A stretch of 64,000 bases of DNA from Escherichia phage FL04: sequence record PP358550; one strand, written 5' to 3'. Numbering within the stretch: position 1 is the first letter of the stretch; each line of letters starts with the position of its first letter. The notes under the pieces were generated by a model. It saw only the letters and a list, made by a program, of their open reading frames with translations, did no database searches and had not been told where the DNA came from. Of this stretch, positions 19,465-40,527 are shown in pieces. The position numbers and the translations under genes were made by a program.

Positions 19465-20211
19465 ATGAAAAACATTATCGCTGCTATCGTTCTTTCTGCT
19501 ACTGCTTTCGGTGCTAACGCTGCGTCCTTTGATTGCGCTAAAGCTACTACCAAATCAGAGAAGTTTATTTGTGCTAATGAGTCTATCTCCGCACTGGACT
19601 CTAAACTTCATGAGGTGTATGTTAAGGCTGTTAAGATTGATCCGTCTCTGAAACAAGAGCAACGAAACTGGAATAAAACTGTTCGTGATACAATGATCAA
19701 TATCGGGCAGATTCAGCCACTGGAGGCTGTATATAACGCTCAAATCCAAAACTTGATGAATGTATTACCTAAAGAAGAAAGCGATTCAGAGACTTCTGCG
19801 AAGGTTGAAGAAGAACAACCGAAACAGGAAGCAAAAGTGGTAGAAGAACCGAAGGTCGAAACTTTTACCTATCAATGCACCGTTCGTTATGAGTGGAGTA
19901 TGAAAGATGGAATTTCCACAAAAATTAAAGAGGCTCCACTGTATGCAAAATATGGAAACCAGCCAGGGGATCTTAAAGTAACCATTAAAAATGGGAAGAT
20001 GGTTGATTTTGTATACATTGATGAATACAACGTACACAAAGCAAACGTACAAGAAACCGTTATGACTAAAGGCGGGTTTTATAAGAATGTTGGCAAGAAA
20101 GATCTATATGAATACTCCGTTTTCGAACCAAACGACGGAACTATTCGATTTGAAAAACGTCATCCTACATTCGGTGGCGCAATTGATGTAGATCAATACG
20201 TTTGCAAGTAA
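19465..20211 (+). CDS. secreted DUF1311/LprI-like domain protein
   Basis: 248 aa; signal peptide MKNIIAAIVLSATAFGANA; FDCAKATTKSEKFICANESISALDSKLHEVY...QRNWNK pattern typical of DUF1311 (LprI-like); acidic linker; C-terminal Cys-containing domain. Confidence 0.6.
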   Translation: MKNIIAAIVLSATAFGANAASFDCAKATTKSEKFICANESISALDSKLHEVYVKAVKIDPSLKQEQRNWNKTVRDTMINIGQIQPLEAVYNAQIQNLMNVLPKEESDSETSAKVEEEQPKQEAKVVEEPKVETFTYQCTVRYEWSMKDGISTKIKEAPLYAKYGNQPGDLKVTIKNGKMVDFVYIDEYNVHKANVQETVMTKGGFYKNVGKKDLYEYSVFEPNDGTIRFEKRHPTFGGAIDVDQYVCK

Positions 20212-22492: not shown

Positions 22493-23149
22493 TTATCTAA
22501 TCCTTCCGAGGATTCTGGCAGATTGATTGCAAAGAGTATCTAAATTCTCAATGTCAATATCCGGTTTATTCTTCCATGAAATGGCGATACTACCAGAATA
22601 GACATTATCGAGATTGAATATAGGACAAGAATACATGAAACCTATATCGATATTCTCTAATTTCTTTTCTCTTGATGGAATATACTGGAAATCTTTATCG
22701 GTAAAATAGGATTTACCTAAAAGATGCCTACGATATTCTTCACTCGTTTTATTGATAGGGAATCCGCCTAAATTTTTTTCATCGATTGTATGCGGTAGCT
22801 TTCCTTCATATGCCACCAAATCAACAAAATAGTTTAGGTTTTTCGGACGAAAACTAAAAACAGCAGAAAAATCGGCATCAGCCGACACATGAACTATCTG
22901 TAACTGCTCCTGTGCTGCATTATCAAAATTGCGGTCTTTCTCTACCTGGAGAACGTGAGCATAAGTCTCATAACGAGTCTCTTTATACAAGGCAAATAAC
23001 TCGTTTTTACTATAGACGACAAATGCTAATATGGACAACACGACGGCAGCAAAAACACGAAGTACGAGCAACTCCGTGCTTTTAGTTGTGAAAATAGCGC
23101 GCAGGACATTTGAGATAGCAAAGTCTTTCCCTTTTTCAGAAACTTGCAT
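22493..23149 (-). CDS. t: holin T
   Basis: 218 aa, same length as T4 holin; conserved blocks EQLQIVH.S..ADFSAV.SFRPKNLNYFVD..AYEGKLP, MYSCP.FNLDN.Y.G, ARILGR; single N-terminal TM. Confidence 0.9.
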   Translation of the reverse strand: MQVSEKGKDFAISNVLRAIFTTKSTELLVLRVFAAVVLSILAFVVYSKNELFALYKETRYETYAHVLQVEKDRNFDNAAQEQLQIVHVSADADFSAVFSFRPKNLNYFVDLVAYEGKLPHTIDEKNLGGFPINKTSEEYRRHLLGKSYFTDKDFQYIPSREKKLENIDIGFMYSCPIFNLDNVYSGSIAISWKNKPDIDIENLDTLCNQSARILGRIR

Positions 23150-23182: not shown

Positions 23183-23422
23183 TTATTTAGGTACTTGACT
23201 ATCACTATTTTTATTTTGCTCGTTGCTATCTTCTGACTGATCTTTATTAAACTCCTTATAAAGTTCTTCCACAAAACGATCATCAATTGGCGTATTGGTA
23301 TAAGCCGCAAGACGACGAGCGCAATAGAAGAAAATTTTAGTGAGCATCTTTTCACTAATTAACTTTGACAATAATTTCATTCCGAAATTAGACAAAGCAC
23401 CAATGACGATATTATAGACCAT
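23183..23422 (-). CDS. hypothetical small protein (79 aa) between adhesin and holin genes
   Basis: AAGGAG 7 nt upstream of ATG on - strand; hydrophobic N-terminus, acidic C-terminus. Confidence 0.5.
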   Translation of the reverse strand: MVYNIVIGALSNFGMKLLSKLISEKMLTKIFFYCARRLAAYTNTPIDDRFVEELYKEFNKDQSEDSNEQNKNSDSQVPK

Positions 23423-23487
23423 AGCCGTTTCTCCTTAGTAGTTTCCCCTTCCGTGGGAGTTTTCCTTAATTCTTTTTATAATTGCGT

Positions 23488-24270
23488 CTAAACAGCCGGT
23501 CCGTAAATAGCTCCGCGATTTTGCCACGTTGGAGAAGACCCTATAACAGCATATCCAGAATCGCCGCCATTATATTCAGATCCTTGACCACGAATATTAC
23601 ATCTACCTCCTGCGGCGCCTACCTCACCACCGCTTCCACCATTATAGATACCGTTCACGGACCCCGAACCGGGCGCATAAAGAGTACCAGCAGTTGCGCC
23701 TGATTGCATATCAATAGATCCGCCCGGCGCACCAAACGGACGCCCACCGCCACCGCCAAAGGTTAATCTCATTTGTGAAAAAGGAGAATAATACCCACCA
23801 CCGCCACCGCCACCGCCACCTGCAATAGCTCCACCATTATTAATTCTTAGTCTCCCACCAATATCATTTTGAATACAATGCCCACCGGCTGATCCAGGAC
23901 CATTGCTACCGCCATTCCCGCCACGACCATACATCGTTACGCCATGTATATTCAACTGAACATATTCATTCGGTGTATCTCCGTACATAAAGAATAAAGG
24001 AACATCTTTAGAATATGATACTAAATCTCCAGTGATATTAAACACTATAGGTGTACTACCTGCTTCAAAGCATCTATCACGGAACCACTGACCGTTGAAG
24101 TTATGGTCTGCACCAAGTGTATGAATAATTTCTCGCGAGCGACCTGCAAATTGACTCATCCAGCAAGGAACACCCAATCTTAATTGACCAGCCGCTTGAC
24201 TCATCCATCTTTGTCCTGTTTCATTTGCGGCTGAACTTCCAATCCAACCAGGAACACCAACTACTGCCAT
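23488..24270 (-). CDS. 38: receptor-recognising tail fibre adhesin gp38 (T2-type, glycine-rich motifs)
   Basis: 260 aa; N-terminus [48 protein letters not shown] matches T2-type gp38 attachment domain; poly-Gly motifs ([11 protein letters not shown]). Confidence 0.88.
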
Positions 24271-24285
24271 AATTTATACTCCAAA

Positions 24286-24300
24286 GGGGGCGTTGCCCCC
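24286..24300 (-). other. GC hairpin (GGGGGC-N3-GCCCCC) in the 37-38 intercistronic region, no U-tract
   Basis: Perfect 6-bp G/C stem; member of a recurring hairpin family (also 30017, 42099, 54848). Confidence 0.5.
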
Positions 24301-24306
24301 TTGTTG

Positions 24307-27105
24307 TTAGAATTTAAAATATTTACTAATTTTGCGAGCAATTTTAGTAAAGAGAGGCGTTTTCAATTCTTTAATTTCTTCACTCATTTCCTGAATAGCC
24401 TTAATTAAAAGAGCATTCACAGCGGAGTTAGAAATTGTCAGAACATCAGATCCATCAACTTCAACTTTAGACACAGCTTCCGGTAATTCTTTTTCAAGAT
24501 CCTGAGCAATAATACCAACTTCGCGTTTAATCACGCTACGATCTTTAATAGACTTAACTTTATCGTAAGTATAAACTTTCAGTCGGCAAACTTTTTCGAC
24601 CGCTCCATATTCTAATTCTTCTTTATTAATCTTGAGACGGGAGTCAGAACGAATATACACATCGCTAAAGCTACCATTTCCTGGTGTATAAAAGAATCCA
24701 TCATGATGGAATTCAAATATAGCTTGTGGGTGTCCAGCATCAGGAGAAGCCTCCGTGGATCCGACGCGAATGATTGCTTGCCCCCACTGTGATGGAATAC
24801 GACGCATACCAAAGTCAACAGCGGTGCTATATCCTTGATTGGTTATAACGCTTCTTGCTTTAAGAATAGGATAATAACTATCTTGACCAACATAACCATG
24901 ATCAACGAATAATGGAGCTTCTACTCGCCATTGGTTGCCCCAATCACCCGGTTGTCTAGCAATCCATCCAGAACCGTTAATGTGTACACGGTCGCGGTTA
25001 ACGTTAACCATTAAGGTATTTTGCGGGTTTAACGCAATCTCACCATTGTTTGTTATATGTACTGCCGCCTGAGTAGCATAGCTATAAAATGCTAGCGAAT
25101 TATCAGCACCACCTTTACCAATATACCAGTTACCATTCCCGTCTACGTCACCGCGAATATGCAAAGCGTTGCTGGCTGTAGTCGATAATACAATAGCATC
25201 ACCCGGACGTTTAATAGTCAATCGACCAGTTGATTCAACTTCACCAAAGAATTTAGTTTTAATTGCACCAGTCGCTAAAGTACGTTCAGTGGAAAAATGA
25301 GCGCCTTTACTATCTTCTAACTGAATAATGTTATCACGAGCGTTATTGCTATCACCCCAATGATTAAACCGGAAATAATCGCGTGATTGCTTACCACCCG
25401 CTTCAAACGTCAGCGTACCTTTACTTAAATTAACATCACCGCTAAAGGTAGCAGCAAGAGAACCGCCTTTTAATACTAAAGCGTTAGCACCGCTAGTGCC
25501 ACCCAAAGTAACATCGCCAGTTTTTAATTGATAGCGGAAAGGTCTATTTGTATTAAAGTTTCCATCTTGATCATTTTCGTCGGTGGAAAGAATATAAAGA
25601 CTTTCACCATCATTACGGAAAATTGTGCCAAATTTACCGCCATACATACGGAATGCATTAGATGAGCGGAATTTAACTTCTGTTTTAAATGTGGTAGTGT
25701 TATTAAGGTTAACAGTAGAGTTAAAATTGGTAGGAGCACCGAAGTTAACAGCACCATTAAAATCTTGTTGAGCTGTCCATGTGTGGCGACCATCTTCAAG
25801 AACAACACGGCGGACTGTGTAAGTTCTATTTCCAGAATTACCGAACACACGAACGACAAAATAACGGTAGTTTGTCTGGGATACAGTACCGCGCCAAACC
25901 TGAACAGTACGCCCTGTGCTAGTGTGTTCACTAGGACCAACGGAAAACATAACCAGGTTTCCGTCAATCGTCCCCCAATCCATATTTGCTGGCATGTTCT
26001 TTATTTTGTTCAAAGGAACGCTAAACATACTACCAGGAACAAAATCAAAGGTTTGCCAATCTAACTCCGCTAATTGAGCTTTAATACCACCCATACCCAA
26101 AGTAATTGGAAGAGAATAAGATGTATATACTTCGTTCCATACACCCCACGCACCACCAGTATATGCACGCTCAAAAATACGATCGCGAGTAGTTGCACCC
26201 GTTCCGGCAGTAGTAAATTTTTGGAAAATAGCACCACCAGAAGCACGCTGTTTAACTTCCAGCAAACCAACAATAACGGCTGGTAAACCTTCACCAGTAG
26301 GACAGTTAATAACGGCATCAGTGCCTAAAATGTTATATAACCCAGGAGTTTTAAAATCATTCAGATCTCCATCATAGAAAGTCGCTGGTGTGCCATGACC
26401 AACCTGCTTCCATTCCTCCCACTTAGGTGCACTAGCATCCCATGCAGCAGCGAGACAACGAGTATAAACCATACCCATGCGGGTAGTATAACGCTGCGTT
26501 CTTGTGTAGAAACCACCTTCAAATATTTCTAAAAATCCTTGTGCGGCTGATCCTTCTTCTGGATAATGGCGATCAAATGATGCGATTGCGCTTGAACTGT
26601 TTCTCCATAAGCCACAATGTTCTAATTCTCCCAAGCTATCAAGGTCAATCGTTTGTGAAAGTGGACGAGTTGACGCTTGAACATTACGCCACACACCCCA
26701 TGGACCATCTACACCATTCCATTTCGCAGACAAAGAACGGATATAAACGTTACCAGACCGAACAGTATAACGCTGAGTGCCAGCAAATTGACCAGCCACA
26801 AATACTTCTAATACACCTACAGCATTCTCTTCTGGGAATTTATTTGCTGGCTGCGCATTTGTTGAAGTTGATTTAGACCAAACGCCAGTAAATTTACCAG
26901 TAGGTCCATAATTATCTAAATTTGCATCAGATGGCAACTCACCGCGAAAGTGTCCCAAAGTAATTACATTATTGCTGTCATCTTTTGTATATAGTTCTCG
27001 ATCCGCTAGGTTAATAGCAAGTTCACCCGGAGTTAGAATATTCGCATCCGGCTTGCGACCTGCCGTACTTGTTCTTTTAAATTGGATTCTCTGTAAATCT
27101 GCCAT
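24307..27105 (-). CDS. 37: long tail fibre distal subunit gp37 with C-terminal intramolecular chaperone (S74-like) domain
   Basis: 932 aa; N-terminus MADLQRIQFKRTSTAGRKPDANILTPGELAINLADRELYTKDD matches gp37; C-terminal SDVYIRS/DSRLKINKEE...AVNALLIKAIQEM resembles autoproteolytic chaperone domain. Confidence 0.88.
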   Translation of the reverse strand: MADLQRIQFKRTSTAGRKPDANILTPGELAINLADRELYTKDDSNNVITLGHFRGELPSDANLDNYGPTGKFTGVWSKSTSTNAQPANKFPEENAVGVLEVFVAGQFAGTQRYTVRSGNVYIRSLSAKWNGVDGPWGVWRNVQASTRPLSQTIDLDSLGELEHCGLWRNSSSAIASFDRHYPEEGSAAQGFLEIFEGGFYTRTQRYTTRMGMVYTRCLAAAWDASAPKWEEWKQVGHGTPATFYDGDLNDFKTPGLYNILGTDAVINCPTGEGLPAVIVGLLEVKQRASGGAIFQKFTTAGTGATTRDRIFERAYTGGAWGVWNEVYTSYSLPITLGMGGIKAQLAELDWQTFDFVPGSMFSVPLNKIKNMPANMDWGTIDGNLVMFSVGPSEHTSTGRTVQVWRGTVSQTNYRYFVVRVFGNSGNRTYTVRRVVLEDGRHTWTAQQDFNGAVNFGAPTNFNSTVNLNNTTTFKTEVKFRSSNAFRMYGGKFGTIFRNDGESLYILSTDENDQDGNFNTNRPFRYQLKTGDVTLGGTSGANALVLKGGSLAATFSGDVNLSKGTLTFEAGGKQSRDYFRFNHWGDSNNARDNIIQLEDSKGAHFSTERTLATGAIKTKFFGEVESTGRLTIKRPGDAIVLSTTASNALHIRGDVDGNGNWYIGKGGADNSLAFYSYATQAAVHITNNGEIALNPQNTLMVNVNRDRVHINGSGWIARQPGDWGNQWRVEAPLFVDHGYVGQDSYYPILKARSVITNQGYSTAVDFGMRRIPSQWGQAIIRVGSTEASPDAGHPQAIFEFHHDGFFYTPGNGSFSDVYIRSDSRLKINKEELEYGAVEKVCRLKVYTYDKVKSIKDRSVIKREVGIIAQDLEKELPEAVSKVEVDGSDVLTISNSAVNALLIKAIQEMSEEIKELKTPLFTKIARKISKYFKF

Positions 27106-27140
27106 TTTATAAAATCCTTAACGGTTGTTAGAATAATATT

Positions 27141-27167
27141 ATTTAGAAAAGCGGGGATAATCCCCGC
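27141..27167 (-). terminator. rho-independent terminator after gp36 (- strand)
   Basis: GCGGGGA-TTA-TCCCCGC hairpin followed on - strand by TTTTCTAAAT. Confidence 0.6.
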
Positions 27168-27172
27168 TAGAA

Positions 27173-28663
27173 TTAGAAAGTACCAAAATCAATTACCGCA
27201 TTAAGCGGAACAGCGCCAACATCATCAGGAGTTGGTTTGTGTCCTTCGTGGTATAATTCAAATGTATCGGTGTCCTGAGTATTGTTGCGTGATTTAACGA
27301 AAATAATTTTAGAATCATGTGTGATGCCTAGTTTCTCGTGCGCTTTAATATCACTAACACGATGAATCATTGCTGTGCCATCTAAGCTATTAAGTCCAGC
27401 GTAGCAATTATCACCATTATAGTTAGCTTTTGCGGTACGAACGCCGTTTGCCGCCGGAACAGTTAACGGTCCTGTCATGGTATCGCCAGTTACGTTAACA
27501 TAGCGAATATCAGCCAATTTACGGTGATCTACATAGTTCCATGCAGTCCATGATTCATTAGAACACGAACGCCAGCACATCGGATGGTCAATAGATTCAG
27601 GATAATACACCTGAACAATTCGACGAGTACCGACCGCATCTTCTGGGCGATATACCATCAAAACGCCGTTATAATAGCTATCAGACGGTTTATTAGTACC
27701 TGATCCAGCATTTTCCACACGATAGATACCGCGATTAATAAGAGTGTTCCAATCAACGTTTCCAATGATTGTTGGATTTGCTACCATTGATTTTTTCTCA
27801 AAGTAGCTCAAACGAACCAATTCATTCGGACCAGCAGGATCGTTTGTCGCCAACATTCTAGGCGCTTGCAAGTTACCTTCCATAATATCACCAGCACGTT
27901 TAACCTGTGCATCATTGGTGACATTACCTAGTCCAACATCGGCTTTAGTTGGTTTATTGTTGGTGTGATAAAAACGACCTTCTTTGCCATTAACAAAAAT
28001 GGTAGGCTCATCTTTGCTACGGAATACCAACGTATCAAGAACGTTACCATAATAGATCTTAGTCGCATCAAAATTAATTAAATCACGTTCCCTTGCAATT
28101 AATTTCGAATCAACCGATAGTTTAACAGTGACAGTGTTTAAATTATATGTTCCTGTGAGAGTATCACCGCGACGAGACACCAAATCTAAATCATTATTCG
28201 TTGGTTTATTAACAGGGCTATAGACGCGTTGACCTGTGTCTTTAATGGTTGTCCCTTCGATAGTCCCTTTAGACTTAAATTCGCCCGTTGTGGTGTCAAT
28301 ATACGCCATAATAACGCCATCACGGGCATTAACAAAGCCTATTGACTTCCATGAATGCAAACCCCAGCTTACGCCGTCAAAATTAGCAGCGTCGCTCTGA
28401 CCTTTAAAGATACCATTCTTTTTGGTTTCCCCAGCCGATGCGCTACCTACGCTTAAACCTTCCTCGAAATGAACTTGCTTTTGAAATGTGCCACCTTCGG
28501 ATGCACTAACAGCATCAAAATCGGTAGCCGAAGGTCTATCAAAAGCGGTATAGATTTTATGACCTTTGTAGAAAAGCTGATCCCCCGCTGGCTGGATCGT
28601 CAAGTTTCCTTGCGTCCAAATGGGAGATCCACCTACAGTAGATCCATATTTCAAATCTGCCAT
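27173..28663 (-). CDS. 36: long tail fibre hinge/distal connector gp36 (enlarged, 496 aa)
   Basis: N-terminus MADLKYGSTVGGSPIWTQGN...PAGD matches T4 gp36 N-terminus; C-terminal extension relative to T4 (221 aa). Confidence 0.8.
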   Translation of the reverse strand: MADLKYGSTVGGSPIWTQGNLTIQPAGDQLFYKGHKIYTAFDRPSATDFDAVSASEGGTFQKQVHFEEGLSVGSASAGETKKNGIFKGQSDAANFDGVSWGLHSWKSIGFVNARDGVIMAYIDTTTGEFKSKGTIEGTTIKDTGQRVYSPVNKPTNNDLDLVSRRGDTLTGTYNLNTVTVKLSVDSKLIARERDLINFDATKIYYGNVLDTLVFRSKDEPTIFVNGKEGRFYHTNNKPTKADVGLGNVTNDAQVKRAGDIMEGNLQAPRMLATNDPAGPNELVRLSYFEKKSMVANPTIIGNVDWNTLINRGIYRVENAGSGTNKPSDSYYNGVLMVYRPEDAVGTRRIVQVYYPESIDHPMCWRSCSNESWTAWNYVDHRKLADIRYVNVTGDTMTGPLTVPAANGVRTAKANYNGDNCYAGLNSLDGTAMIHRVSDIKAHEKLGITHDSKIIFVKSRNNTQDTDTFELYHEGHKPTPDDVGAVPLNAVIDFGTF

Positions 28664-28696
28664 AAAGTAACCTCAAAAATTAGTTATAGTTCCGAG

Positions 28697-28704
28697 TATT
28701 TATA
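28697..28704 (-). promoter_or_regulatory. T4-type late promoter TATAAATA (for gp36)
   Basis: Exact TATAAATA on - strand about 35 nt upstream of gp36 ATG. Confidence 0.6.
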
Positions 28705-28820
28705 GAATGTTAACAAAATATCGCTTCGCGACGTGCCGTAGGCACTGACTAATTTTTAACCGAAACAAATTTCTATTATTCTAAAGATCTTTCTTCGTTT
28801 TGGTTACATTTTAACCAACT

Positions 28821-28853
28821 GTATAAAAATAAAGCCGACCACATGGATCGGCT
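28821..28853 (-). terminator. rho-independent terminator after gp35 (- strand)
   Basis: Hairpin AGCCGACC-ACATG-GATCGGCT (reverse complement of the 17566 terminator) followed on - strand by TTATTTTTAT. Confidence 0.7.
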
Positions 28854-28864
28854 TGTTAAAAATG

Positions 28865-30004
28865 TTAATCAACATCGAACTCTTTAAAGTTGTTGGATGT
28901 GATGTGTTTATTATCTCTAGGCAGTTTAAGAAGACTCATTACAGGGTTAGTAAAATCACCGTTATCCTGAATATGAGTTGTTCTAACACCATTAACACCA
29001 AATGAAGTAGGACCAGTAGTTTTGACGACTCCACTGATCGGCGTTATTAGTATGTTTCTAATTTTAACAATACCTTCATTGGAGTTGGTTGGATATCTGA
29101 TACAACCAGTTACTACACTATCAACTCCTTCCGGTACGGTATAGACGGCTTCAAACTTTTCCCATTGGTCTTTTTTGCTGGCATTGTATCGAACACCAGT
29201 TTGATATTGTCCATCGGTGAAGTAGTTGTGATAGAAACGCGCTGTTACGTTGGCTGCGGCTGCGGCACTATCACGGAACAATTCAAAGGATATTGATAGT
29301 TTGTCACCTGCCTTTATGTTAAAATCCTCAAGTGGGGCGCTGGTCTCATCATGAGGCCATTGTATTAGCTCGAAATGTTCGGCATCTTCGCTAACATACT
29401 CAACCGGATAATCTAAAAATCGTTGTGGTGTTCCTGTTATAGCAAGATCATCTATAGTATCATAGACTTTCTCAATTTGTATAGATGAATCTTGTCCTTC
29501 CCCGTTGGTCGCTTGCATCCCTTCACACACAATTTTACCCATTTTAGTAGAATAAATTGCTGCATAGGATACACGAGGCATTTGCTGTAGCAAAATGTGA
29601 TTCGGGAATGATACAGATCCCATCTTAGAAAATACAACATCACTTATCGGATCTGCAAACAATTCTCCATGCGTTGCCATCGCAATGATATAGTCACCTT
29701 TCAGCAAAGAAAGATAATCACGCATTGCCAAAACAGCACCGCGACCATAGAATACCTTTTCTTCGTGTAGTTGTCCAGTTGGAGTAAGAACTTTAAAATT
29801 TAGGCCATTTTCATAGCCAGTGCCAACGATCTCCACTCCATTAAATCTAATCCTTGCTGGTTTGGTAGAATCCGCATTAGATCCGCGTACTTCCAGCTTA
29901 TACATCACAGAGTTATTTTCTGAAATGCTGGTAAATGTCGCAGAGTCTTCGTCGAAATGCGCAAACCTAATTCCAGTGTTGCGTAATTCTATATCTTGTG
30001 TCAT
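28865..30004 (-). CDS. 35: long tail fibre hinge protein gp35
   Basis: 379 aa (T4 gp35 372 aa); position between gp34 and gp36. Confidence 0.7.
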   Translation of the reverse strand: MTQDIELRNTGIRFAHFDEDSATFTSISENNSVMYKLEVRGSNADSTKPARIRFNGVEIVGTGYENGLNFKVLTPTGQLHEEKVFYGRGAVLAMRDYLSLLKGDYIIAMATHGELFADPISDVVFSKMGSVSFPNHILLQQMPRVSYAAIYSTKMGKIVCEGMQATNGEGQDSSIQIEKVYDTIDDLAITGTPQRFLDYPVEYVSEDAEHFELIQWPHDETSAPLEDFNIKAGDKLSISFELFRDSAAAAANVTARFYHNYFTDGQYQTGVRYNASKKDQWEKFEAVYTVPEGVDSVVTGCIRYPTNSNEGIVKIRNILITPISGVVKTTGPTSFGVNGVRTTHIQDNGDFTNPVMSLLKLPRDNKHITSNNFKEFDVD

Positions 30005-30016
30005 AATAACCCCATA

Positions 30017-30032
30017 GGGGGCTTTCGCCCCC
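30017..30032 (-). other. GC hairpin GGGGGC-GAAA-GCCCCC (GNRA loop on - strand) between gp34 and gp35, no U-tract
   Basis: Perfect stem; 12 nt upstream of gp35 ATG. Confidence 0.5.
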
Positions 30033-30038
30033 CTTTAA

Positions 30039-33000
30039 TTAGTCTTCCCAGATAAAGTCTACGGTACGAGTCAGATTATTGGCGATGATTTTAACATTAC
30101 CAACTTTGATCCAATCACGAACCGTCATAGAGTTCATTAAACCACCTTCTGCAACTACTGCCCCGATTTCCTGAGCGGTAGGCTTATTCTGTTTGGTGTA
30201 AATTTCACCCCATGCGGTCCATTGACCACCAGTACCGGAACGGATATAATGTTTATGAGTACCATCAGGGGACCAAAGCTGGGTAAGCCCGTCCTCGTCA
30301 GTACCCCATTGCATCAGAGTACCGTTTTTCTTCTCTGGATAAGTTTCTTTGATGTTCTGGGTAGTAACTCGCATATTCCAGAAACCGATGTTACCGATTG
30401 CCGGAGCGGTTGCCGCGCTAGCTTCATGCTTAACAGAAACAATAGGCGCATTATCCATAGTCAGCTTACCGACCATTGTATCGCCAGCATTCTTAACAAA
30501 CTGACGGTTAAGAACTTCGTCAGCGTTTCCTGCGTGTACGATCTGATATTTCTGTCCGGAGATCTCTGTAGTTAACGTTTGAGAACCTGCCTTGATGTTA
30601 ACACTTCCACCGTGACCGATATTCAGCATACCATCTGGGGAACGAGTCATTGCCGGATTAGACTGGTCAACAATGTATAAACCGCCTTGTTTCGCATACA
30701 GGTTACGACCTGCAATAAAGTCTCTATATGCTGTCGCGTCGCCATTGTGTTCCATAGCAAAGGCGTAATGCTCGACGACTCCACCATCATTGATTTTACC
30801 GAAAGCAATAGCATCACTATCAACAACTTGCGCTGTTCCAGTACCACCAACGATAATAGACCAAGAGTTTTTCATGCCTTCCGATGCGGTTGTGCCATGC
30901 AGAGTAATTCCGGTGTGACCGTCAACTCCACGCTCCCCCAACACCAGATGACCATTACTCGGAACATCGGTCGAGTTCTTAGTCACAGACAGAGTTTCAA
31001 AGGAACCTGATTTTAAGCACTCTAAATCGCCCTTCACGTTAACGTTTTTATTAAACGTGTAATTGCTCTCTATGATCTGGTCAATGTCTCTACGCGCCCA
31101 TTTAGCGGCCTCTACGTTACCCAATTTCAAACTATTCTGAGCGGTTGCCATCTTAGGTAAGAAATTAGCAAGTGCGTAGTTTAATCCTTTCGGAGTTACC
31201 GCAATCCCGTCATGCTGGTAGTTTCCTAGCTCTTGAGTAGAACCTTGCAGATTATCACCAACAAAACAGTTTTCCTGAGTAGCAACTTTCAAGAAACCAC
31301 GACGCGCTTCGGTTGCTTTCCATGTATCCTCTGTCTGAACAACATATTTGAAGTTCTTCGGAGAAATTGCTACATTAGCCAGTGCACCAGCCACGGTTTC
31401 GGCTTGAGTACCAACTCGGATAATACCTTCTTTACCTTCGGTGGCCTTTTTGCCTTGCAGCTTTTTAGGAGTGATGATTGTAGTATCATCTTGACCAGCA
31501 TCCGTAAGCTGAGTAGTAGCAACTTTAGCGACACCTTTTGTGTCTTCGGTTGCATCCAGACCGCTGATCATGATACCTTGCCACAAATCACCAGTAAGGT
31601 TAAGCCCCTGAGTCGGATCTACTTTCAAACGCTGTGCATTCTCAAAGAAGGTTTTAATCTTCAATGGGGTAGAAATGCGAGCATCGTCACGACCTGCGTC
31701 AAATTCCGACTGAGTTGCAATTTCTGCTAAACCGTGTAAAGTTTCCGTAGCACGGCGAGTATGCAGTTTTTTAGGTGTGATAATATGGTTATCACTTTGG
31801 CCTAAGTTAGTTTCTTCCTGCGTAGCAATTTCAGCGATACCAGTACGGGATTCGGTAGCAGTACGCTTGGTTAACGTGCGAGTAGTGATCAGCAATGCAT
31901 CTTGCGGGGTTGATTCAGTAGCCCCTTGCACTTCCGCGTCAGTTGCCAGATACCCAACACCACGAGAAGTTTCAGTAGCTTTAACTTCGTTGATGTTTTG
32001 CGGAGTAACGATTTTAGCGTGGTCGTCGATGTTATAGATCCCTGTACCAGCTTCACCCCTTCGAGCGGCAGCATTACCGCCTACCTGAACAATTTCAGCG
32101 ATACCAGCAAGATCCTCGGACGCGCGACGTTCTTCTAACTTCTTAGGAGTGATTGCGCGGGTATCGTCTAAACCTTCGTTTGTTTCATGTTGAGTTGCAA
32201 TTTCCATCACACCACGACGGTCTTCGGTAGCAACACAGTCATTTAACTTTTTAGGTGTAACGATAACATCATCCAGGAAGCTGGAACCAGTATCTTGATG
32301 CGTTTCCGCTTGAGTTGCAATGCGAGCAATACCGCGTCGAGTTTCGTTGGCTGTTTTATTAGCCAGAACCTTTGGGGTCACCGCAACTTCGTCGCTAGGA
32401 TTATCTTCATGGTTTTTGTTTGTTTCATCCTGGGTAGCCAGTGCAATTACACCAACACGATCTTTACGAGTCGGATCTACTCGTTCTACAATCGGGTGAG
32501 CATGTGCCACCAACCAGTATTTCTTACCATCATCACCTTCTGAATAAGAGAACTCCAGATAAGGTACATAATCATTTGCAGCGTTGAAAGACAATTCAGA
32601 CACTCCAGTCCATGTATCGGTCCCATTGAATGGGTACTCGCTACGCTTAGGAAACTGAACCATGTTTTTCTGCATAAGGATTTTTGTATCCTCTTCTGAG
32701 GTAATGATTCGGCAAGTCTGGTTTCCGTGCATATACTGCATAGAAACTTGGATACGATCACCCGGCTCGACATTGGTCGGTAAAGTCAAGGTAACATCAC
32801 GATCACCAAATACTGCAACATAGCTATTAGGGGATAAGCGAGTATCACTAATGATAGGATTCAAGCGAACAGACTGATCGCCATCCCACAAACGCCATAA
32901 GTTTTCCGGTTTGTCAAAGATGAATACACCATGACCGCTACGCTTACCAACAATTTCTTTTACCCCGAAAGTACCGATCGATTGTTCTTGCGCACCTTCA

Positions 33001-33779
33001 TGTACTTTTACTGTAACATGGTTGGTTGCAGTCAATCCGTCAAGATCGGTAGTCTGGATCATATCACCGTTATTAGCAAACTTAGGAAGCATCAAAACAA
33101 TGTTACCTAAAGAACTACGACGGAATACCTGATCACCGTTTTGCATCTGAATCGGATCAATAGATGGCTGTGCATATACCCCGCGCGGCTCCGTTCCCGT
33201 CTGGTAAACGTGCCAGCGATTGCGAACAAAAATGAAGTAGTTCATTGCATAAGGGGTAGTACAATACCATTTGCGGTTGTTTACCACACCGTTATGATAG
33301 AACTCATGACCAGCCGCAAGGAACGATAACTCATTAACACCGCACTTGCCACCGATATCTTTTACTGTTATAGTGTCGCCCTCTGCCGGATTAGTAGGCA
33401 TTGAGAATGTCAAGTTTGCAAACTGACAGTCCGCTGCGATATAATCACCGGACTTTAAAGGAGTATCGCCGGAAGTTGCTGCAACATAATCCCAACGTGG
33501 GTCCGTGCGCAGTGCTTGCCATTTAGTCGGGTCAAAGTCACCTGCTGGTTTTGCGATATCTTCTTTTGCATAATACGGACGGTTTTGATAGATTGTAGTT
33601 CCGTATTGATCATAACCGCGAGTTGTGTCATACTGAGTAATACCATTATGGTAATTGAAAAATTCAACGTTGACCGCATCCGTTGATGTGTTTTTATCTG
33701 CGTATGCTACATTGACGACCTTTTCATTACCAGCGTCAAAGCCAAATGTGGCCTTGAAATGTTGAGAAAAATCTGCCAT
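30039..33779 (-). CDS. 34: long tail fibre proximal subunit gp34
   Basis: 1246 aa; N-terminus MADFSQHFKATFGFDAGNEKVVNVAYADKNTSTDAVNVEF resembles T4 gp34; internal repeats of type G(I/V)AxIATQxET. Confidence 0.88.
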   Translation of the reverse strand: MADFSQHFKATFGFDAGNEKVVNVAYADKNTSTDAVNVEFFNYHNGITQYDTTRGYDQYGTTIYQNRPYYAKEDIAKPAGDFDPTKWQALRTDPRWDYVAATSGDTPLKSGDYIAADCQFANLTFSMPTNPAEGDTITVKDIGGKCGVNELSFLAAGHEFYHNGVVNNRKWYCTTPYAMNYFIFVRNRWHVYQTGTEPRGVYAQPSIDPIQMQNGDQVFRRSSLGNIVLMLPKFANNGDMIQTTDLDGLTATNHVTVKVHEGAQEQSIGTFGVKEIVGKRSGHGVFIFDKPENLWRLWDGDQSVRLNPIISDTRLSPNSYVAVFGDRDVTLTLPTNVEPGDRIQVSMQYMHGNQTCRIITSEEDTKILMQKNMVQFPKRSEYPFNGTDTWTGVSELSFNAANDYVPYLEFSYSEGDDGKKYWLVAHAHPIVERVDPTRKDRVGVIALATQDETNKNHEDNPSDEVAVTPKVLANKTANETRRGIARIATQAETHQDTGSSFLDDVIVTPKKLNDCVATEDRRGVMEIATQHETNEGLDDTRAITPKKLEERRASEDLAGIAEIVQVGGNAAARRGEAGTGIYNIDDHAKIVTPQNINEVKATETSRGVGYLATDAEVQGATESTPQDALLITTRTLTKRTATESRTGIAEIATQEETNLGQSDNHIITPKKLHTRRATETLHGLAEIATQSEFDAGRDDARISTPLKIKTFFENAQRLKVDPTQGLNLTGDLWQGIMISGLDATEDTKGVAKVATTQLTDAGQDDTTIITPKKLQGKKATEGKEGIIRVGTQAETVAGALANVAISPKNFKYVVQTEDTWKATEARRGFLKVATQENCFVGDNLQGSTQELGNYQHDGIAVTPKGLNYALANFLPKMATAQNSLKLGNVEAAKWARRDIDQIIESNYTFNKNVNVKGDLECLKSGSFETLSVTKNSTDVPSNGHLVLGERGVDGHTGITLHGTTASEGMKNSWSIIVGGTGTAQVVDSDAIAFGKINDGGVVEHYAFAMEHNGDATAYRDFIAGRNLYAKQGGLYIVDQSNPAMTRSPDGMLNIGHGGSVNIKAGSQTLTTEISGQKYQIVHAGNADEVLNRQFVKNAGDTMVGKLTMDNAPIVSVKHEASAATAPAIGNIGFWNMRVTTQNIKETYPEKKNGTLMQWGTDEDGLTQLWSPDGTHKHYIRSGTGGQWTAWGEIYTKQNKPTAQEIGAVVAEGGLMNSMTVRDWIKVGNVKIIANNLTRTVDFIWED

Positions 33780-33807
33780 TATTGGGTCTCCTTTTATAGT
33801 ATGTTCA

Positions 33808-33815
33808 TATTTATA
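33808..33815 (-). promoter_or_regulatory. T4-type late promoter TATAAATA (for gp34)
   Basis: Exact TATAAATA on - strand about 30 nt upstream of gp34 ATG. Confidence 0.6.
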
Positions 33816-33853
33816 AAATAAGGCTTGATAGAAACAAAAGAGGATGATATATT

Positions 33854-34039
33854 ATGGTTAAAGTTGATTTGTCAGACGGTGCAAAATGGGTAGTTGACCG
33901 AATCCCTGATAAGGATTACAATTATTTTCGCGCAGAACTAAACAATGCAATTCTGCGAGTTATGGAGAAATACGGGTATGATCGTGAAGTATCTAGCTCG
34001 TTTGATGAGTCTGTTGTTGTGAGAGTGGAGAGAACTTAA
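33854..34039 (+). CDS. hypothetical protein (61 aa)
   Basis: Immediately upstream of rnh, same strand. Confidence 0.45.
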   Translation: MVKVDLSDGAKWVVDRIPDKDYNYFRAELNNAILRVMEKYGYDREVSSSFDESVVVRVERT

Positions 34040-34041
34040 TT

Positions 34042-34989
34042 ATGACGTATAACCCGTTTACAAAAACTACCGCTACACTTAATGATTTCTTTGATGATCC
34101 AGAAGATAAACTGCCGGAAGGTGTGCATTTGATTGATATGTCGCAGCTTATGATTGCTACTATCTCGCATACCTTTAAACCGGAAGATCCTATTAATGAA
34201 GGCATGATCCGTCATCTTATTCTTGACACCATGCGTTATAATATGACAAAATTCAAAGATCAATACCCAATCACGGTACTTGCTTTTGATTCAAGCAAAG
34301 GTTACTGGCGACGTGATATCGCACCTTACTATAAACGCAACCGTAAGGAAAAACGAGACGCAGATCCTCGTGATTGGGAGATGATCTTTGCTGCGATCAA
34401 TAAGATCACCGAAGAGTTTAAAGAGAACATGCCTTATCACGTTATTAAGGTTGACAAAGTTGAAGCAGATGATATAATCGCTGTGTTAACTAAAAAGTTT
34501 TCTGTAGAAGGTCGTCAGGTGCTAATCAACTCCGGCGATGGTGACTACACACAGTTGCACAAATACAAAAATGTGAAACAGTGGGCGCCAGTACAGAAAG
34601 CATGGAAGAAATGCAAATATGGTAGCCCTTACAAAGACCTTATGGTAAAATGTGTTAAGGGTGACGCAAAAGACGGTGTGGCTTCTGTCAAGTGTCGTAG
34701 TGATTTCATTATCTCTCGACTGGAAGGGGAACGAGCTAAACCAGTTCCAACCAAATGGTTGGAGCAAATTTTCGATGCCGAAGATCCAAAGTCTTTGATG
34801 ACAGAGGAAGAAGCACGACGATTTGACGAAAACCGCGAACTTATTGATTTCGATTACATCCCAGATGATATTCAGAATCAGATTCTGGAGTCATGGGAAA
34901 AATCTAAACCAGCACCACGCGGTAAAATTTATAACTATTTTGTAACAAATGCGTTAGTTAAAATGTTGCAGAAAATTGGTGAGTTCTAA
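34042..34989 (+). CDS. rnh: RNase H (5-prime to 3-prime exonuclease, FEN family)
   Basis: 315 aa; GYWRRD, MPY.V.K.DK.EADD.IAVL.KKFS.EG, DGD.TQLHKY.NVKQW, KDNVASVK.RSDF, LIDFDYIPD, PRGKIY.YFV matching T4 RNase H. Confidence 0.93.
   Translation: MTYNPFTKTTATLNDFFDDPEDKLPEGVHLIDMSQLMIATISHTFKPEDPINEGMIRHLILDTMRYNMTKFKDQYPITVLAFDSSKGYWRRDIAPYYKRNRKEKRDADPRDWEMIFAAINKITEEFKENMPYHVIKVDKVEADDIIAVLTKKFSVEGRQVLINSGDGDYTQLHKYKNVKQWAPVQKAWKKCKYGSPYKDLMVKCVKGDAKDGVASVKCRSDFIISRLEGERAKPVPTKWLEQIFDAEDPKSLMTEEEARRFDENRELIDFDYIPDDIQNQILESWEKSKPAPRGKIYNYFVTNALVKMLQKIGEF
34451..34478 (+). promoter_or_regulatory. internal sigma70-type promoter within rnh
   Basis: TTGACA 34451-34456, 16-nt spacer, TATAAT 34473-34478. 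Confidence 0.4.
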
Positions 34990-34999
34990 GGGTTGACAT

Positions 35000-35599
35000 A
35001 TGAAAGAACTTGAATTAAAATGCTATGCACACTCACAAATTGGCGTCGAAACCATCTGTGATTTGTGGGTGGCAATGTATGACGGATACAATCTCTTAGA
35101 CCGAGATAACATTCTAAAACACGAATTTTATTATGATACCGAAGATCATGCGCTACGTCAAAAAGGAATTTATGCACGACTTGACTGTCGAAAATCAGAG
35201 ATCATGGTCAAAATGGGTGATAATGAATCTGGACTATTCAACCGCGAGGAAATTACATTTTCAAATTGGGATGAGTTTGTCCATTTTATTGATAGTATAG
35301 GGGTAAACTCAGACTATATCACTACAACAATGCAAGTAATGACATATCGCAAGTCATTGACTATAGATATGGGTTGTGGTATAGTGGAAATGTGCAAAGA
35401 CACTTTCTATTATGGCAAAGTAGGCGAAGGATTGGGCGACACTGCTCATTATGAACTTGAGTTCGAGTTAAAATCAGGTGATGAAAAAGCACTTGACATT
35501 ATCCGAGAAATGATGCTAGAATATGTGGGTGACGATTTACGTCCTAGCGAAATCTCAAAAGCTGAACGTGGTTTTCAATTAATGACGAAAGAGGGTTAA
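35000..35599 (+). CDS. CYTH-like domain protein (triphosphate tunnel metalloenzyme family)
   Basis: 199 aa; N-terminal ExExK (KELELK), HEFYYDTEDHALRQKGIYARLD, REEITF, C-terminal HYELEFELK acidic strand motifs in the order typical of CYTH domains. Confidence 0.65.
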   Translation: MKELELKCYAHSQIGVETICDLWVAMYDGYNLLDRDNILKHEFYYDTEDHALRQKGIYARLDCRKSEIMVKMGDNESGLFNREEITFSNWDEFVHFIDSIGVNSDYITTTMQVMTYRKSLTIDMGCGIVEMCKDTFYYGKVGEGLGDTAHYELEFELKSGDEKALDIIREMMLEYVGDDLRPSEISKAERGFQLMTKEG

Positions 35600-35603
35600 T
35601 ATT

Positions 35604-36128
35604 ATGACTGAACAGAAAAAAGAAAAAGTAGTATTTGACGAAAATGTACACGGAAATACCCTGGCACAACTGATTAAAGAAGCCAGCGATCAGAAAACCA
35701 TTCAAGAAGCATACGGCGATAAGATCAAAGAGATCAAACAGCGTGCTAAAGAAGAATTAGGCGTAGACGGTAAAATGTGGGGCATTCTGTTTAAACTGTG
35801 TATCACCAGCAACAGCGCGAAACCTTCGAAGCAGAACGCGATGAAGCGGCAGAACTCTATGATCGGGTGTTCAATGCTTAATGAACATGCGGTAAAAGCC
35901 GCGAATAAAACAGCAAACGGTCTTGCAATCGAAAAACTGGTTGTTGAAGAGGGATTGACTTATCTTGAAGCGACCACTCAGTTTGTAGAGGAAAACTCTA
36001 TCGAATATGGTCACTATCAGAAATATATTCCGGTGTCCATTATTGACAAGATCACACAAGAATGTATAGTAAATAGAACGCTCAGGAAGGGAGTGATCGA
36101 CGAACCGACCAACACTCTCGATATTTAA
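35604..36128 (+). CDS. hypothetical protein (174 aa); positional equivalent of T4 gene 33
   Basis: Located between rnh-proximal gene and gp59; C-terminus ...TNTLDI; function not verifiable from sequence. Confidence 0.5.
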   Translation: MTEQKKEKVVFDENVHGNTLAQLIKEASDQKTIQEAYGDKIKEIKQRAKEELGVDGKMWGILFKLCITSNSAKPSKQNAMKRQNSMIGCSMLNEHAVKAANKTANGLAIEKLVVEEGLTYLEATTQFVEENSIEYGHYQKYIPVSIIDKITQECIVNRTLRKGVIDEPTNTLDI

Positions 36129-36137
36129 GGGGTATGT

Positions 36138-36818
36138 ATGATCAGAAACCGTCTTCCTCCAGATCCAGATATGCGAATTAATGCTAAATCTGTGTATATG
36201 TTATATTGCATGATGAAAGCTCACATGAACGGGCGTTATGATTGCGTAAAATATAATTGGAGGATGCGGTTGTCTGATGCCGCATTCAATAAACGCAGAG
36301 ATAAGTATTATTTCGCAAAATTAGCGGAAAAGTACAATCTAAGAGAATTATACTTCCTATTCCTAAGCAATCTGGTAGCTAATACCGATGCATGGGTAGG
36401 TGAAATCACCGATGTTGACGCATACGGGTTTTACATGGAGTACATCGGTAAAATCACTGATGCGGCAACACGATTTGACGATGACATTAAAAGTCTTGTA
36501 TACTTCTCAGAGAAACGCGGGGTTACTCTTAAAGAGCTAATTACATATAATCCCGCAACCGAAACTAGCGGTATCTTTAAACTACTGCAAAATCGGATTA
36601 TATCGTTTGAGTCGTTTATGTTGTTAGATAGCTTTCTAAATATAATCGACGAACACGACAAGGTAGCCAAAGACTTGATTTGGCAAACTTATAGTGTTAA
36701 AATGAAGGCGTACAAGAAACTACTTGTTATTGACGTCGCAAAAGCAAGAGCATTATTTGTTAAAGTAGTTAAAGAGTGTAAAGAAATATCTCAATTAAAA
36801 GCCGAAACAAATAGTTGA
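36138..36818 (+). CDS. 59: helicase loader gp59
   Basis: 226 aa; KSVYMLYCMMKAHMNGRYD.VKYNW.MR.SDAA..KRRDKY.F.KL.EKY.L.EL, LSNLVAN.DAW.G.I.D.DA matching T4 gp59. Confidence 0.92.
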   Translation: MIRNRLPPDPDMRINAKSVYMLYCMMKAHMNGRYDCVKYNWRMRLSDAAFNKRRDKYYFAKLAEKYNLRELYFLFLSNLVANTDAWVGEITDVDAYGFYMEYIGKITDAATRFDDDIKSLVYFSEKRGVTLKELITYNPATETSGIFKLLQNRIISFESFMLLDSFLNIIDEHDKVAKDLIWQTYSVKMKAYKKLLVIDVAKARALFVKVVKECKEISQLKAETNS

Positions 36819-36842
36819 CAAGTAAATTTAAATCTGTATAAT
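36815..36842 (+). promoter_or_regulatory. sigma70-type promoter upstream of gene 32
   Basis: TTGACA 36815-36820, 16-nt spacer, TATAAT 36837-36842. Confidence 0.55.
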
Positions 36843-36872
36843 AGTCTAGTAAATTAATCAAAAGAAGGAATA

Positions 36873-37847
36873 GTGAATATGTTTAAACGCCAAGATTCTT
36901 CCAAACTGCAAGCTCAACTGGCCGCACTGAAAGGTGGCAACGGTTTCTCCAAAGAAGATCCGAAAGAGTGGAAGATTAAGACTGATGCAGCAGGTAACGG
37001 TGAAGCCCTGATTCGCTTCCTGCCGTCTAAGACAGAAGACGGTCTGCCGATTGTGAAACTGGTAAACCATTCCTTCAAAGTTAATGGCAAATGGTATTGG
37101 GAAAACTGCTCCAGCACCCACGGTGATTTTGATTCTTGCCCTGTGTGCAAATATATTAACGAAAAAGACTTGTACAATACCGATAAAACCGAATGGCAAC
37201 TGATTAAGCGTAAAGCGTCTTACTACGCAAACATTCTGGTACTGAAAGATCCTCAAGCACCAGAAAATGAAGGTAAGGTATTCAAATTCCGCTTCGGTCA
37301 GAAAATTTATGATAAGATCGTTGCAATGGTGAACGTGAATACCGATATGGGCGAAGTTCCGGTAGATGTAACTTGTGTGTTCTCTGGTGCTAACTTCCTC
37401 CTGAAAGCTAAGAAGGTTGATAAACACCAGAACTATGATGATTCTCGTTTCATGCAGCAATCACAGCTTCCGAAAATTGAAGACGAAGCATATCAGAAAT
37501 ATCTGATGGAAAACATGGTTGATCTGAGTGAGATTGTAGCGCCTAGCCAGTTTAAACCGTTCGATGAACTGGAAACCAAATTTAAGAAAACTATGGGCGT
37601 TTCTATGGTAGCTGGTGCTGCGGCTTCCAGTGCTGCGGCAGCGATTAACAGCCAGCTTGACGATTTTGACGCACAGATGAATGCATTCGATTCTGGTATG
37701 ACCGCAGCTAGCACTGTAGTTGGTATTAACGCAGCTAGCACGGCGTTAGATTCTTCCGCTGATGACCTGATGGCATCTCTGGACCTGGGTGGCGGTACTT
37801 CCTCCGCTTCTGATCTGGATGATCTTGACGCTCTGTTAGGGATGTAA
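36873..37847 (+). CDS. 32: single-stranded DNA-binding protein gp32
   Basis: 324 aa; MFKR...EWK.K.D.AGNG.A.IRFLPSK, NHSFK.NGKWY.E.CSSTHGD.DSCPVC.YI...[19 protein letters not shown], acidic C-terminus (DLDDLDALL). Confidence 0.95.
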
Positions 37848-37858
37848 TGAATTTTACA

Positions 37859-37882
37859 GCCTCCCTCCGGGGAGGCTTTTTT
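37859..37882 (+). terminator. rho-independent terminator after gene 32
   Basis: GCCTCCC-TCCG-GGGAGGC hairpin plus TTTTTT. Confidence 0.75.
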
Positions 37883-37908
37883 ATTGCCTAAAATTTTATG
37901 AAAAGGTG

Positions 37909-37936
37909 TTGACATGCTTATGTGGTAATGTATAAT
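37909..37936 (+). promoter_or_regulatory. early promoter cassette (TTGACA-16-TATAAT, type TGTATAATGCACA)
   Basis: Followed by conserved CATCGAAACAA-GGAGGA initiation region; same cassette repeated at 39170 and 39553. Confidence 0.6.
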
Positions 37937-37966
37937 GCACACATCGAAACAATGGAGGATAAAAAT

Positions 37967-39181: not shown

Positions 39182-39197
39182 CGCAATAGTGTATAAT
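39170..39197 (+). promoter_or_regulatory. early promoter cassette (TTGACA-16-TATAAT)
   Basis: Overlaps 3-prime end of upstream CDS; followed by CATATCGAAACAACGGAGGA. Confidence 0.6.
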
Positions 39198-39226
39198 GCA
39201 CATATCGAAACAACGGAGGATTAACA

Positions 39227-39556: not shown

Positions 39557-39580
39557 CGCCGAACACAGATGATGTATAAT
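39553..39580 (+). promoter_or_regulatory. early promoter cassette (TTGACG-16-TATAAT)
   Basis: Followed by ACATCGAAACAAAGAGAGGA initiation region. Confidence 0.6.
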
Positions 39581-39611
39581 ACAAACATCGAAACAAAGAG
39601 AGGACTATATT

Positions 39612-40526: not shown

Positions 40527-40527
40527 C

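Follow-up and report, generated by a model that had tools for sequence, protein, structure and literature searches.

Genes 37 and 38 of Escherichia phage FL04, which lie side by side in the 64,000-nucleotide stretch analysed here (the window; record PP358550), appear to encode the distal half of a long tail fibre of the T2/T6 type, that is, a self-cleaving gp37 capped by gp38, a reading to which we give a probability of about 0.9. According to this model, gp37 would be synthesised as a precursor of 932 residues whose last 113, an intramolecular chaperone (IMC) of the S74 type, would drive trimerisation and folding of the fibre. Self-excision of the IMC would take place at the Arg819-Ser820 bond, Ser820 acting as the nucleophile and Lys825 as the base, and the DVYIR strands in which the gp37 trimer would then end would form a docking tip. 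One gp38 monomer would then sit on that tip through its N-terminal, tryptophan-bearing attachment domain (a 3:1 gp37:gp38 assembly, by homology), and the hypervariable loops of the gp38 polyglycine sandwich would bind the host receptor, most probably Tsx. A self-cleaving gp37 with a gp38 adhesin is already published knowledge for T2/T6, S16, fPS-65 and RB49. The practical value of the present analysis is predictive: a probable primary receptor and a precise maturation site of gp37, Arg819|Ser820, are both proposed from sequence.

Gene 37 is an ORF of 932 codons on the minus strand (24307..27105) and its product as a whole is recognised by phrog_1699, annotated as "long tail fiber protein distal subunit" (E 6.6e-199). 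The nearest relative is gp37 of Krischvirus KMB43 (92% amino acid identity), followed by those of fPS-65 (86%) and T6 (84%), and the RB49 protein is 43% identical over residues 481-918. The N-terminal segment of about 54 residues (26944..27105, minus strand), which presumably joins gp36, is of the Krischvirus type by nucleotide and amino acid comparison: it is 100% identical in nucleotides to KMB43 and LF73P4 and 72% identical in amino acids to RB49. A Gp34_trimer-like trimerisation domain (PF21446, E 5.4e-12) occupies shaft residues 458-524 (25534..25734, minus strand) and matches the T4 gp34 fragments 5nxf and 4uxe in the PDB (E ~1e-9). Self-BLAST found no significant internal repeats in gp37; three units of about 95 residues at positions 56-340 are a visual impression only.

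The extreme C-terminus of this trimerisation domain-bearing protein, its last 113 of 932 residues, corresponds to the IMC (residues 820-932; 24310..24648, minus strand), delimited by a Pfam match and by alignment with gp37 of phage S16. The preliminary description had seen an S74-like chaperone in this region, quoting the segments GSFSDVYIRSDSRLKINKEE and AVNALLIKAIQEM, both of which are present in the gp37 translation, and the profile search bears it out: PF13884 (Peptidase_S74) covers residues 820-878 with 42.1 bits (E 1.1e-10), the curated Pfam cut-off being 22 bits. The domain opens with a Ser/Lys pair five residues apart, S820-D-S-R-L-K825, in which Ser820 (24646-24648, minus strand) is the predicted nucleophile and Lys825 (24631-24633, minus strand) the predicted base. 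The pair is in register with the cleavage site determined experimentally in S16 (DLNVS^SDRRIKK against DVYIR|SDSRLK), described together with its 113-residue IMC in PMC7917993, and the predicted release in FL04 is likewise of a 113-residue piece. By analogy with S16 and fPS-65 (PMC7917993), the DVYIR strand (residues 815-819; 24649..24663, minus strand) is the predicted mature C-terminus and gp38 docking tip. This strand is kept in every homologue spanning it, including those of RB49, FL37, T6, fPS-65 and KMB43; all Krischvirus and Tequatrovirus homologues compared share the junction DVYIR|SDxRLK, and Ser820 and Lys825 are invariant among them. The IMC is under strong purifying selection, with dN/dS of 0.04 against T6 and about 0.10 against FL37.

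If the S74-like segment were an inactive relic, gp37 would stay at full length and gp38 would be attached elsewhere or be absent from the virion. The AlphaFold2 monomer model of residues 773-932, built on a 20-sequence alignment, leaves room for this reading, as its low confidence (mean pLDDT 41) makes it uninformative about the IMC fold. However, the invariance of Ser820, Lys825 and the DVYIR junction, the low dN/dS, the Pfam score well over the cut-off and the cleavage of the S16 and T2/T6 homologues make a relic highly improbable. Self-cleavage also agrees with the C-terminal processing before gp38 binding that the preliminary description had invoked for T2-type phages. According to the literature, gp37 of T2/T6 loses its C-terminal end before gp38 caps it (PMC3157838), and in S16 and RB49 the gp37 chaperone likewise cuts itself off, which uncovers the surface where gp38 docks. 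By homology with these systems, gp37 is expected to be cleaved and gp38 to be present in FL04 particles.

S16 offers the solved gp37-gp38 structure (PDB 6F45; Dunne et al. 2018, as given in PMC7917993) and shares with FL04 the gene order 37-38, the 113-residue self-cleaving IMC with its S-D-x-R-x-K motif and a gp38 with a three-tryptophan attachment domain, a beta-helix and a polyglycine sandwich. Yet gp37 identity to S16 is low, and the IMC alone aligns with 6f45_A (E 1e-4 to 3e-6). RB49, the type Krischvirus, has a homologous IMC with the junction DVYIR|SDARLK and a piece of 109 residues, and a gp38 adhesin cap. In the T6-like phages (T6, AF052605 and NC_054907; KarlGJung, CM8 and fPS-65) the DVYIR|SDSRLK junction and the 113-residue IMC are identical to those of FL04. 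The IMCs of endosialidases, T5 pb1 and MYRF are also C-terminal Peptidase_S74 domains on trimeric fibres, with the Ser-Lys pair at the start of the domain, but they are only distant sequence relatives, and what they uncover on release is the tip of the fibre itself, with its binding or enzymatic function, instead of a surface on which a separate adhesin docks.

Gene 38 (23488..24270, minus strand) encodes a putative monomeric tail-fibre adhesin of 260 residues. Its product matches PF05268 (GP38, E 4.4e-71), PF21721 (Gp38_N, E 6.3e-20) and phrog_2056 (E 6.6e-111). Among experimental structures it matches two of gp38, namely 9v85 at E 7e-77 and 6f45_D at E 3e-47 (residues 5-257 against 5-246). 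The conserved attachment N-terminus and poly-Gly motifs that had been noted earlier are both present. The attachment domain (residues 1-42; 24145-24270, minus strand; PF21721) contains tryptophans W9, W22 and W37, which line up with those of S16 gp38. The polyglycine/hypervariable receptor-binding region extends over residues ~113-245 (23536-23934, minus strand); residues 110-260 are 34% glycine, with runs such as GGSGG, and glycine-rich motifs at 115-121, 151-159, 172-176 and 211-215 alternate with hypervariable segments. A tblastn search (E <= 1) found no second gp38 copy within the window.

The T4-type gp38, an assembly chaperone absent from the virion, was considered for this gene and rejected, as Pfam and PHROGs match adhesin families only, and "T2-type" is the right name for the class, in the sense of an adhesin gp38 as opposed to the T4 chaperone. 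Several database homologues are still labelled "distal long tail fiber assembly catalyst", which would suit a gp38 that acts solely as a chaperone and leaves receptor binding to the gp37 tip. That T4-style label was inherited with the gene number, though, and such a role is highly improbable given that gp38 hits no families other than those of adhesins, PF05268 and PF21721, together with solved adhesin structures, that porin specificity switches with gp38 swaps in T6-like phages, and that FL15, whose gp38 is 98% identical, depends on Tsx.

With gp38 as the adhesin, its closest relatives point to a receptor. Amino acid identity is 100% with the deposited Krischvirus LF73P4, 98.1% with FL15 (five residue differences), 95.8% with KarlGJung (eleven differences) and 94.6% with CM8. 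The comparison with adhesins of known receptor thus places Tsx users, FL15, KarlGJung and CM8, nearest to FL04, and the nearest characterised alleles are, as judged by identity, of the T6/Tsx subtype. Because gp38 is 98% identical to that of FL15, which uses Tsx as established with a deletion mutant (Lutz et al. 2025, PMC12032242), the receptor of FL04 is probably the E. coli nucleoside porin Tsx; Tsx is also the receptor of KarlGJung and, by RB-TnSeq, of CM8. The placing of host-range determination in gp38 accords with published gene swaps between T6-like phages, in which gp38 fixes porin specificity. The prediction of Tsx is by similarity, and a single hypervariable-loop substitution can change the receptor, as does Q206L in RB68. 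S16 gp38 matches over its full length yet has different hypervariable loops and binds OmpC, and RB49 gp38 targets OmpA and O antigens, whereas Tsx is predicted for FL04. Against Tsx speaks fPS-65, whose gp38 is identical to that of KarlGJung but which on Yersinia reportedly depends on the inner-core heptose of LPS; this requirement may instead be a property of the short tail fibre. As far as sequence analysis reaches, the earlier interpretation of the module is supported, and the sequence gives clear boundaries for host-range engineering, in which gp38 or its hypervariable loops would be swapped.

Beyond the earlier account, FL04 is a Krischvirus genome with a minority gene order and a cross-genus mosaic module. 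The nucleotide identity of 96-96.5% to FL37 and RB49 over 19.9 kb assigns the backbone to Krischvirus (RB49-like), and the flanking genes are also of the Krischvirus kind, with a gp36 of 496 residues and a 79-residue ORF before the holin. In BLASTn comparisons the RB49 match is 98.4% up to position 23478 and 95.7% from 26978. Between these points lies a cassette common to FL04 and Tequatroviruses (23498..26943; gp38 plus gp37 residues ~55-932), which matches fPS-65 at 93.8% and T6 at 89.8% identity over precisely that span; the Tequatrovirus match ends at 26943. The T6-like Tsx clade as a whole shares the cassette at 89.8-93.8%, with gp38 89-96% identical, but differs in that the flanking genes and backbone of FL04 are Krischvirus and that the N-terminal part of Tequatrovirus gp37 has 117 residues against 54 in FL04 and is unrelated at the DNA level. 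The span 23498-26943 is a cross-genus host-range cassette, with most of the module exchanged with Tequatroviruses, and a clean natural case of one such cassette moving between two genera of Straboviridae. RB49-like phages have unmodified cytosine DNA and Tequatroviruses hydroxymethylcytosine DNA; co-infection is therefore expected to be hostile, and recent, ongoing exchange between the genera would be notable if true.

The cassette is itself a patchwork. In 150-nucleotide bins, positions 26150-26750, within gp37, are 99-100% identical to fPS-65 and KarlGJung and only 68-77% to Krischvirus relatives whose gp38 is identical. Such exchange of the shaft independently of gp38 would be accounted for if host range did not come from gp38 alone, that is, if the gp37 shaft, heavily recombined and bearing knob-like units around residues ~56-340, also bound a surface component or tuned deployment of the fibre; receptor-predictive k-mers have indeed been reported in Gp37 besides Gp38. 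We consider this unlikely, since gp37 differences did not follow receptor use (Salem et al.), neutral recombination between conserved motifs can yield the same patchwork, and a Pfam search detected no binding-domain family in the shaft.

In 14 of 58 Krischvirus records gp38 adjoins gp37, as it does in FL04; in most of the genus it occupies a distant locus, and in RB49 gene 38 lies at 45367-46143 of the record, about 110 kb away, with a product 57% identical to gp38 of FL04. This distant locus is empty in the Krischvirus relatives with gp38 beside gp37; it falls outside the window, so that its emptiness in FL04 is deduced from them. Two alternative places for the adhesin gene exist in Krischvirus, and use of one excludes use of the other. 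The relatives with adjacent gp38 (FL15, KMB43, LF73P4 and MIZ4/5; Lutz et al. 2025, PMC12032242) have the same backbone, the order 36-37-38-ORF79-holin and a gp38 98-100% identical to that of FL04, and differ in that FL04 carries the Tequatrovirus-like allele at 25700-26750. One tentative explanation, to which we give somewhat less than even odds, is that the adjacent 37-38 order is non-ancestral in the FL04 lineage: a T6-type gp37/gp38 cassette would have been re-acquired from Tequatroviruses by an illegitimate crossover within 8 nucleotides of the gp38 stop codon, and the native RB49-type gp38 at its distant, hairpin-flanked locus would have been lost. If so, the 99-100% identical stretches of gp37 would indicate recent, ongoing exchange between both genera.

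A T4-type late promoter box, TATAAATA, was located by exact match upstream of gene 36 (28697..28704, minus strand), 33 nucleotides before the start codon of gp36 (28663), and is the probable start of a 36-37-38 late transcript. This assignment is by position only, because the window shows no enrichment of the motif (3 observed against 5.2 expected); the presence of copies upstream of both gene 36 and gene 34 is suggestive by position alone. Scans of the window for sigma-70 promoters and terminators gave nothing above background except one hairpin on the opposite strand (23443-23459), between gp38 and the 79-residue ORF. GC content peaks at 49% at 23500-23999, probably owing to the glycine-rich part of gp38.

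The distal tail fibre genes lie on the minus strand, where an ORF of 932 amino acids (24307-27105) encodes gp37, the distal long-tail-fibre subunit, and is followed after 36 nt by a 260-amino-acid ORF (23488-24270) for the adhesin gp38. Upstream of gp37 are genes for a gp36-like protein of 496 amino acids (27173-28663, -) and a gp35-like hinge protein of 379 (28865-30004, -); downstream of gp38 come the holin t (22493-23149) and, between the two, a 79-amino-acid ORF of phrog_402 (23183-23422, -). The start of gene 36 is preceded, at 33 nt, by a T4-type late promoter box (TATAAATA), and a second such box lies upstream of gene 34. The first is consistent with a 36-37-38 late transcript, the motif not being enriched and the promoter being assigned by position only.

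The preliminary description had proposed an S74-like intramolecular chaperone at the gp37 C-terminus, and both motifs it quoted were found in the ORF, GSFSDVYIRSDSRLKINKEE from residue 812 and AVNALLIKAIQEM near the C-terminus. gp37 matched the PHROG distal long-tail-fibre subunits (E 6.6e-199) and contains a Gp34_trimer domain (residues 458-524); residues 820-878 match Pfam Peptidase_S74 ('chaperone of endosialidase') at 42.1 bits, the curated cut-off being 22. Its C-terminal stretch aligned with that of S16 gp37 (PDB 6f45_A; E 1e-4 with the single sequence, 3e-6 with a 20-sequence profile), with Ser-Asp-x-Arg-x-Lys in register and also the GxIAQ(D/E)(L/V)-x3-LP motif typical of S74 domains; weaker matches were to another phage tail fibre and to human MYRF, also an S74 protein. 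The last 113 residues of S16 gp37 are the intramolecular chaperone, and autocleavage at DLNVS^SDRRIKK exposes the gp38 docking surface (Salem et al., PMC7917993). In FL04, SDSRLK begins at residue 820, which would give a C-terminal piece of 113 residues, and the putative junction reads DVYIR^SDSRLKI versus the DVYIR^SDGRLKI predicted for fPS phages (Salem et al., PMC7917993); the same prediction has already been published for fPS-65, whose gp37 DNA is about 94% identical to that of the window. RB49 and most T-even-like phages have a self-cleaving chaperone domain on gp37, and a gp38 monomer attaches once it is removed (Golomidova et al.). The junction was kept in every database homologue spanning it and in RB49, FL37, T6, fPS-65 and KMB43, and the low dN/dS of the chaperone domain (0.04 against T6, about 0.10 against FL37) indicates strong purifying selection. 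For residues 773-932, an AlphaFold monomer model reached a pLDDT of 41, too low to confirm the fold.

gp38 matched PF05268 (GP38 adhesin; E 4.4e-71) and PF21721 (Gp38_N; E 6.3e-20), and S16 gp38 (6f45_D; E 3e-47) and the GFP-gp38 fusion 9v85 (E 7e-77) aligned along its full length. Trp 9, 22 and 37 align with tryptophans of the S16 attachment domain, and there are four glycine-rich motifs, glycine making up 34% of the C-terminal 150 residues; the T2-type N-terminal attachment and poly-Gly character claimed earlier are thus borne out. The suggested role of gp38 in host range agrees with published gene swaps, in which porin specificity is set by gp38, specifically by its distal half (2026 preprint). 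The original observation is confirmed and its interpretation supported because of the domain matches, the cleavage-site alignment and the published mechanism. This architecture is established knowledge and a protein identical to gp38 is already deposited, while cleavage, virion composition and receptor use in FL04 are predictions. Our analysis adds a Krischvirus backbone, a canonical gene order that is in the minority, the distant locus being presumably empty, and a fine-scale cross-genus gp37 mosaic, points of modest interest that the literature largely anticipates. The T4 chaperone type of gp38 was also considered; no such family was matched. A local GC peak (23500-23999; 49% versus 36-43% around it, GC skew strongly negative) falls on the minus-strand segment that encodes the glycine-rich part of gp38, and glycine codons rather than foreign origin are its likely cause.

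The gp38 protein is 100% identical to that of LF73P4, 99.6% to those of KMB43 and MIZ4/5, 95.8% to KarlGJung, 94.6% to CM8 and 88.9% to T6. T6 is the classical Tsx phage. Among adhesins of known receptor, the closest to gp38 were those of Tsx users, with FL15 at 98.1% (five substitutions, only I208V in the loop region). FL15 loses plating on tsx deletion (Lutz et al. 2025), Tsx is cited as the KarlGJung receptor (Maffei et al., as cited), and CM8 was assigned Tsx/HepI by RB-TnSeq (2026 preprint). Because gp38 is close to these FL15, KarlGJung, CM8 and T6 alleles, the predicted FL04 receptor is quite probably Tsx; a single loop substitution, Q206L in RB68, can switch receptor (2026 preprint). 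The gp38 of fPS-65 is identical to that of KarlGJung, and for fPS-65 a dependence on LPS inner-core heptose was reported in Yersinia (PMC7917993). The same protein is thus linked to two reported needs, LPS heptose in Yersinia and Tsx in E. coli K-12, and the heptose requirement attributed to gp38 may belong instead to the short tail fibre gp12.

Window positions 27100-47000 are 96-96.5% identical to FL37, RB49 and relatives, which assigns the FL04 backbone to Krischvirus. RB49 matched at 98.4% up to 23478 and at 95.7% from 26978, with only weak patches between, and the Tequatroviruses fPS-65 (93.8%) and T6 (89.8%) each matched over exactly 23498-26943 and almost nowhere else in the window. The boundaries are sharp, the left falling no more than about 8 nt from the stop codon of gp38 and the right at about gp37 codon 55. 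In 150-nt bins, gp38 was 99-100% identical to the Krischviruses KMB43 and LF73P4 and 86-93% to fPS-65 and KarlGJung. Within gp37, 25700-26150 was 99% identical to fPS-65 and 87% to KMB43, and 26150-26750 was 99-100% identical to fPS-65 and KarlGJung and only 68-77% to KMB43, LF73P4 and FL15. This exact gp37 patchwork was not found in any deposited phage, the nearest module overall being that of KMB43 (93.3% DNA identity). The stretch 99-100% identical to Tequatroviruses is also a region (gp37 residues ~56-340; 26086-26940, -) of three ~95-residue units with the loose pattern G.W...LE.F......TQRYT.R.G.VY.R....W....W..W..V; self-BLAST gave no significant internal repeats there, and residues 72-262 match a 'tail collar fiber protein' PHROG (E 1.5e-38). 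The gp36 homologue, at 496 amino acids versus the ~220 cited for T-even gp36 (PMC3157838), is a mosaic in its own right, with identities of 70-83% to RB49 and 93-100% to KMB43 over 27200-27500, and of 97-100% and 76-89%, respectively, over 27950-28550.

In RB49 (AY343333), gp37 is directly followed by the 79-amino-acid ORF with no adjoining gp38. Published work and the RB49 record place its gene 38 at a displaced site some 110 kb off (45367-46143), with a product 57% identical to the window gp38. The distant gene was present in 44 of 58 Krischvirus records; in the remaining 14, including KMB43, LF73P4, FL15, MIZ4/5, kvi, FL20, G2494 and G5211, only the flanks of that locus matched, and KMB43 has 37 bp in place of the 908 bp that hold gene 38 and its flanking hairpins. 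An adjacent gp38 was directly confirmed in at least 10 of these 14. The two positions therefore exclude each other, each genome having a single adhesin gene. Both placements were already reported by Lutz et al. (2025), who put gp38 near the holin in FL04, FL15 and FL20 and away from it in FL37 and FL38. No second gp38 copy was found within the window, the distant locus lying outside it, and by analogy with its nearest relatives FL04 would have a single adhesin. The holin/79-amino-acid ORF region was present in all 58 Krischvirus records, Tequatroviruses having no such ORF at that position; in RB49 this ORF occupies the usual place of gene 38.

At RB49 45290-46197 the displaced gene has GC-rich hairpins on either side (AGGGCTATCC...GGATAGCCC and AGCCCC...GGGGC), and the 37 bp in KMB43 (889-925) hold another, CGGGGA...TCCCCG. 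The arrangement is similar to promoter-stem-loop (PeSL) modules, which have been proposed as mediators of shuffling in RB49/phi1. Residues 66-133 of the gp35-like protein gave a weak Pfam match to the ILEI domain (E 5.9e-4) that, at 20.7 bits, fell short of the cut-off of 27 and probably reflects chance or very remote similarity. Finally, a 248-amino-acid ORF (19465-20211, +), on the strand opposite to the fibre genes and among small early-type ORFs, appears to have a signal peptide (MKNIIAAIVLSATAFGANA) and is rich in Lys and Glu in its middle region.
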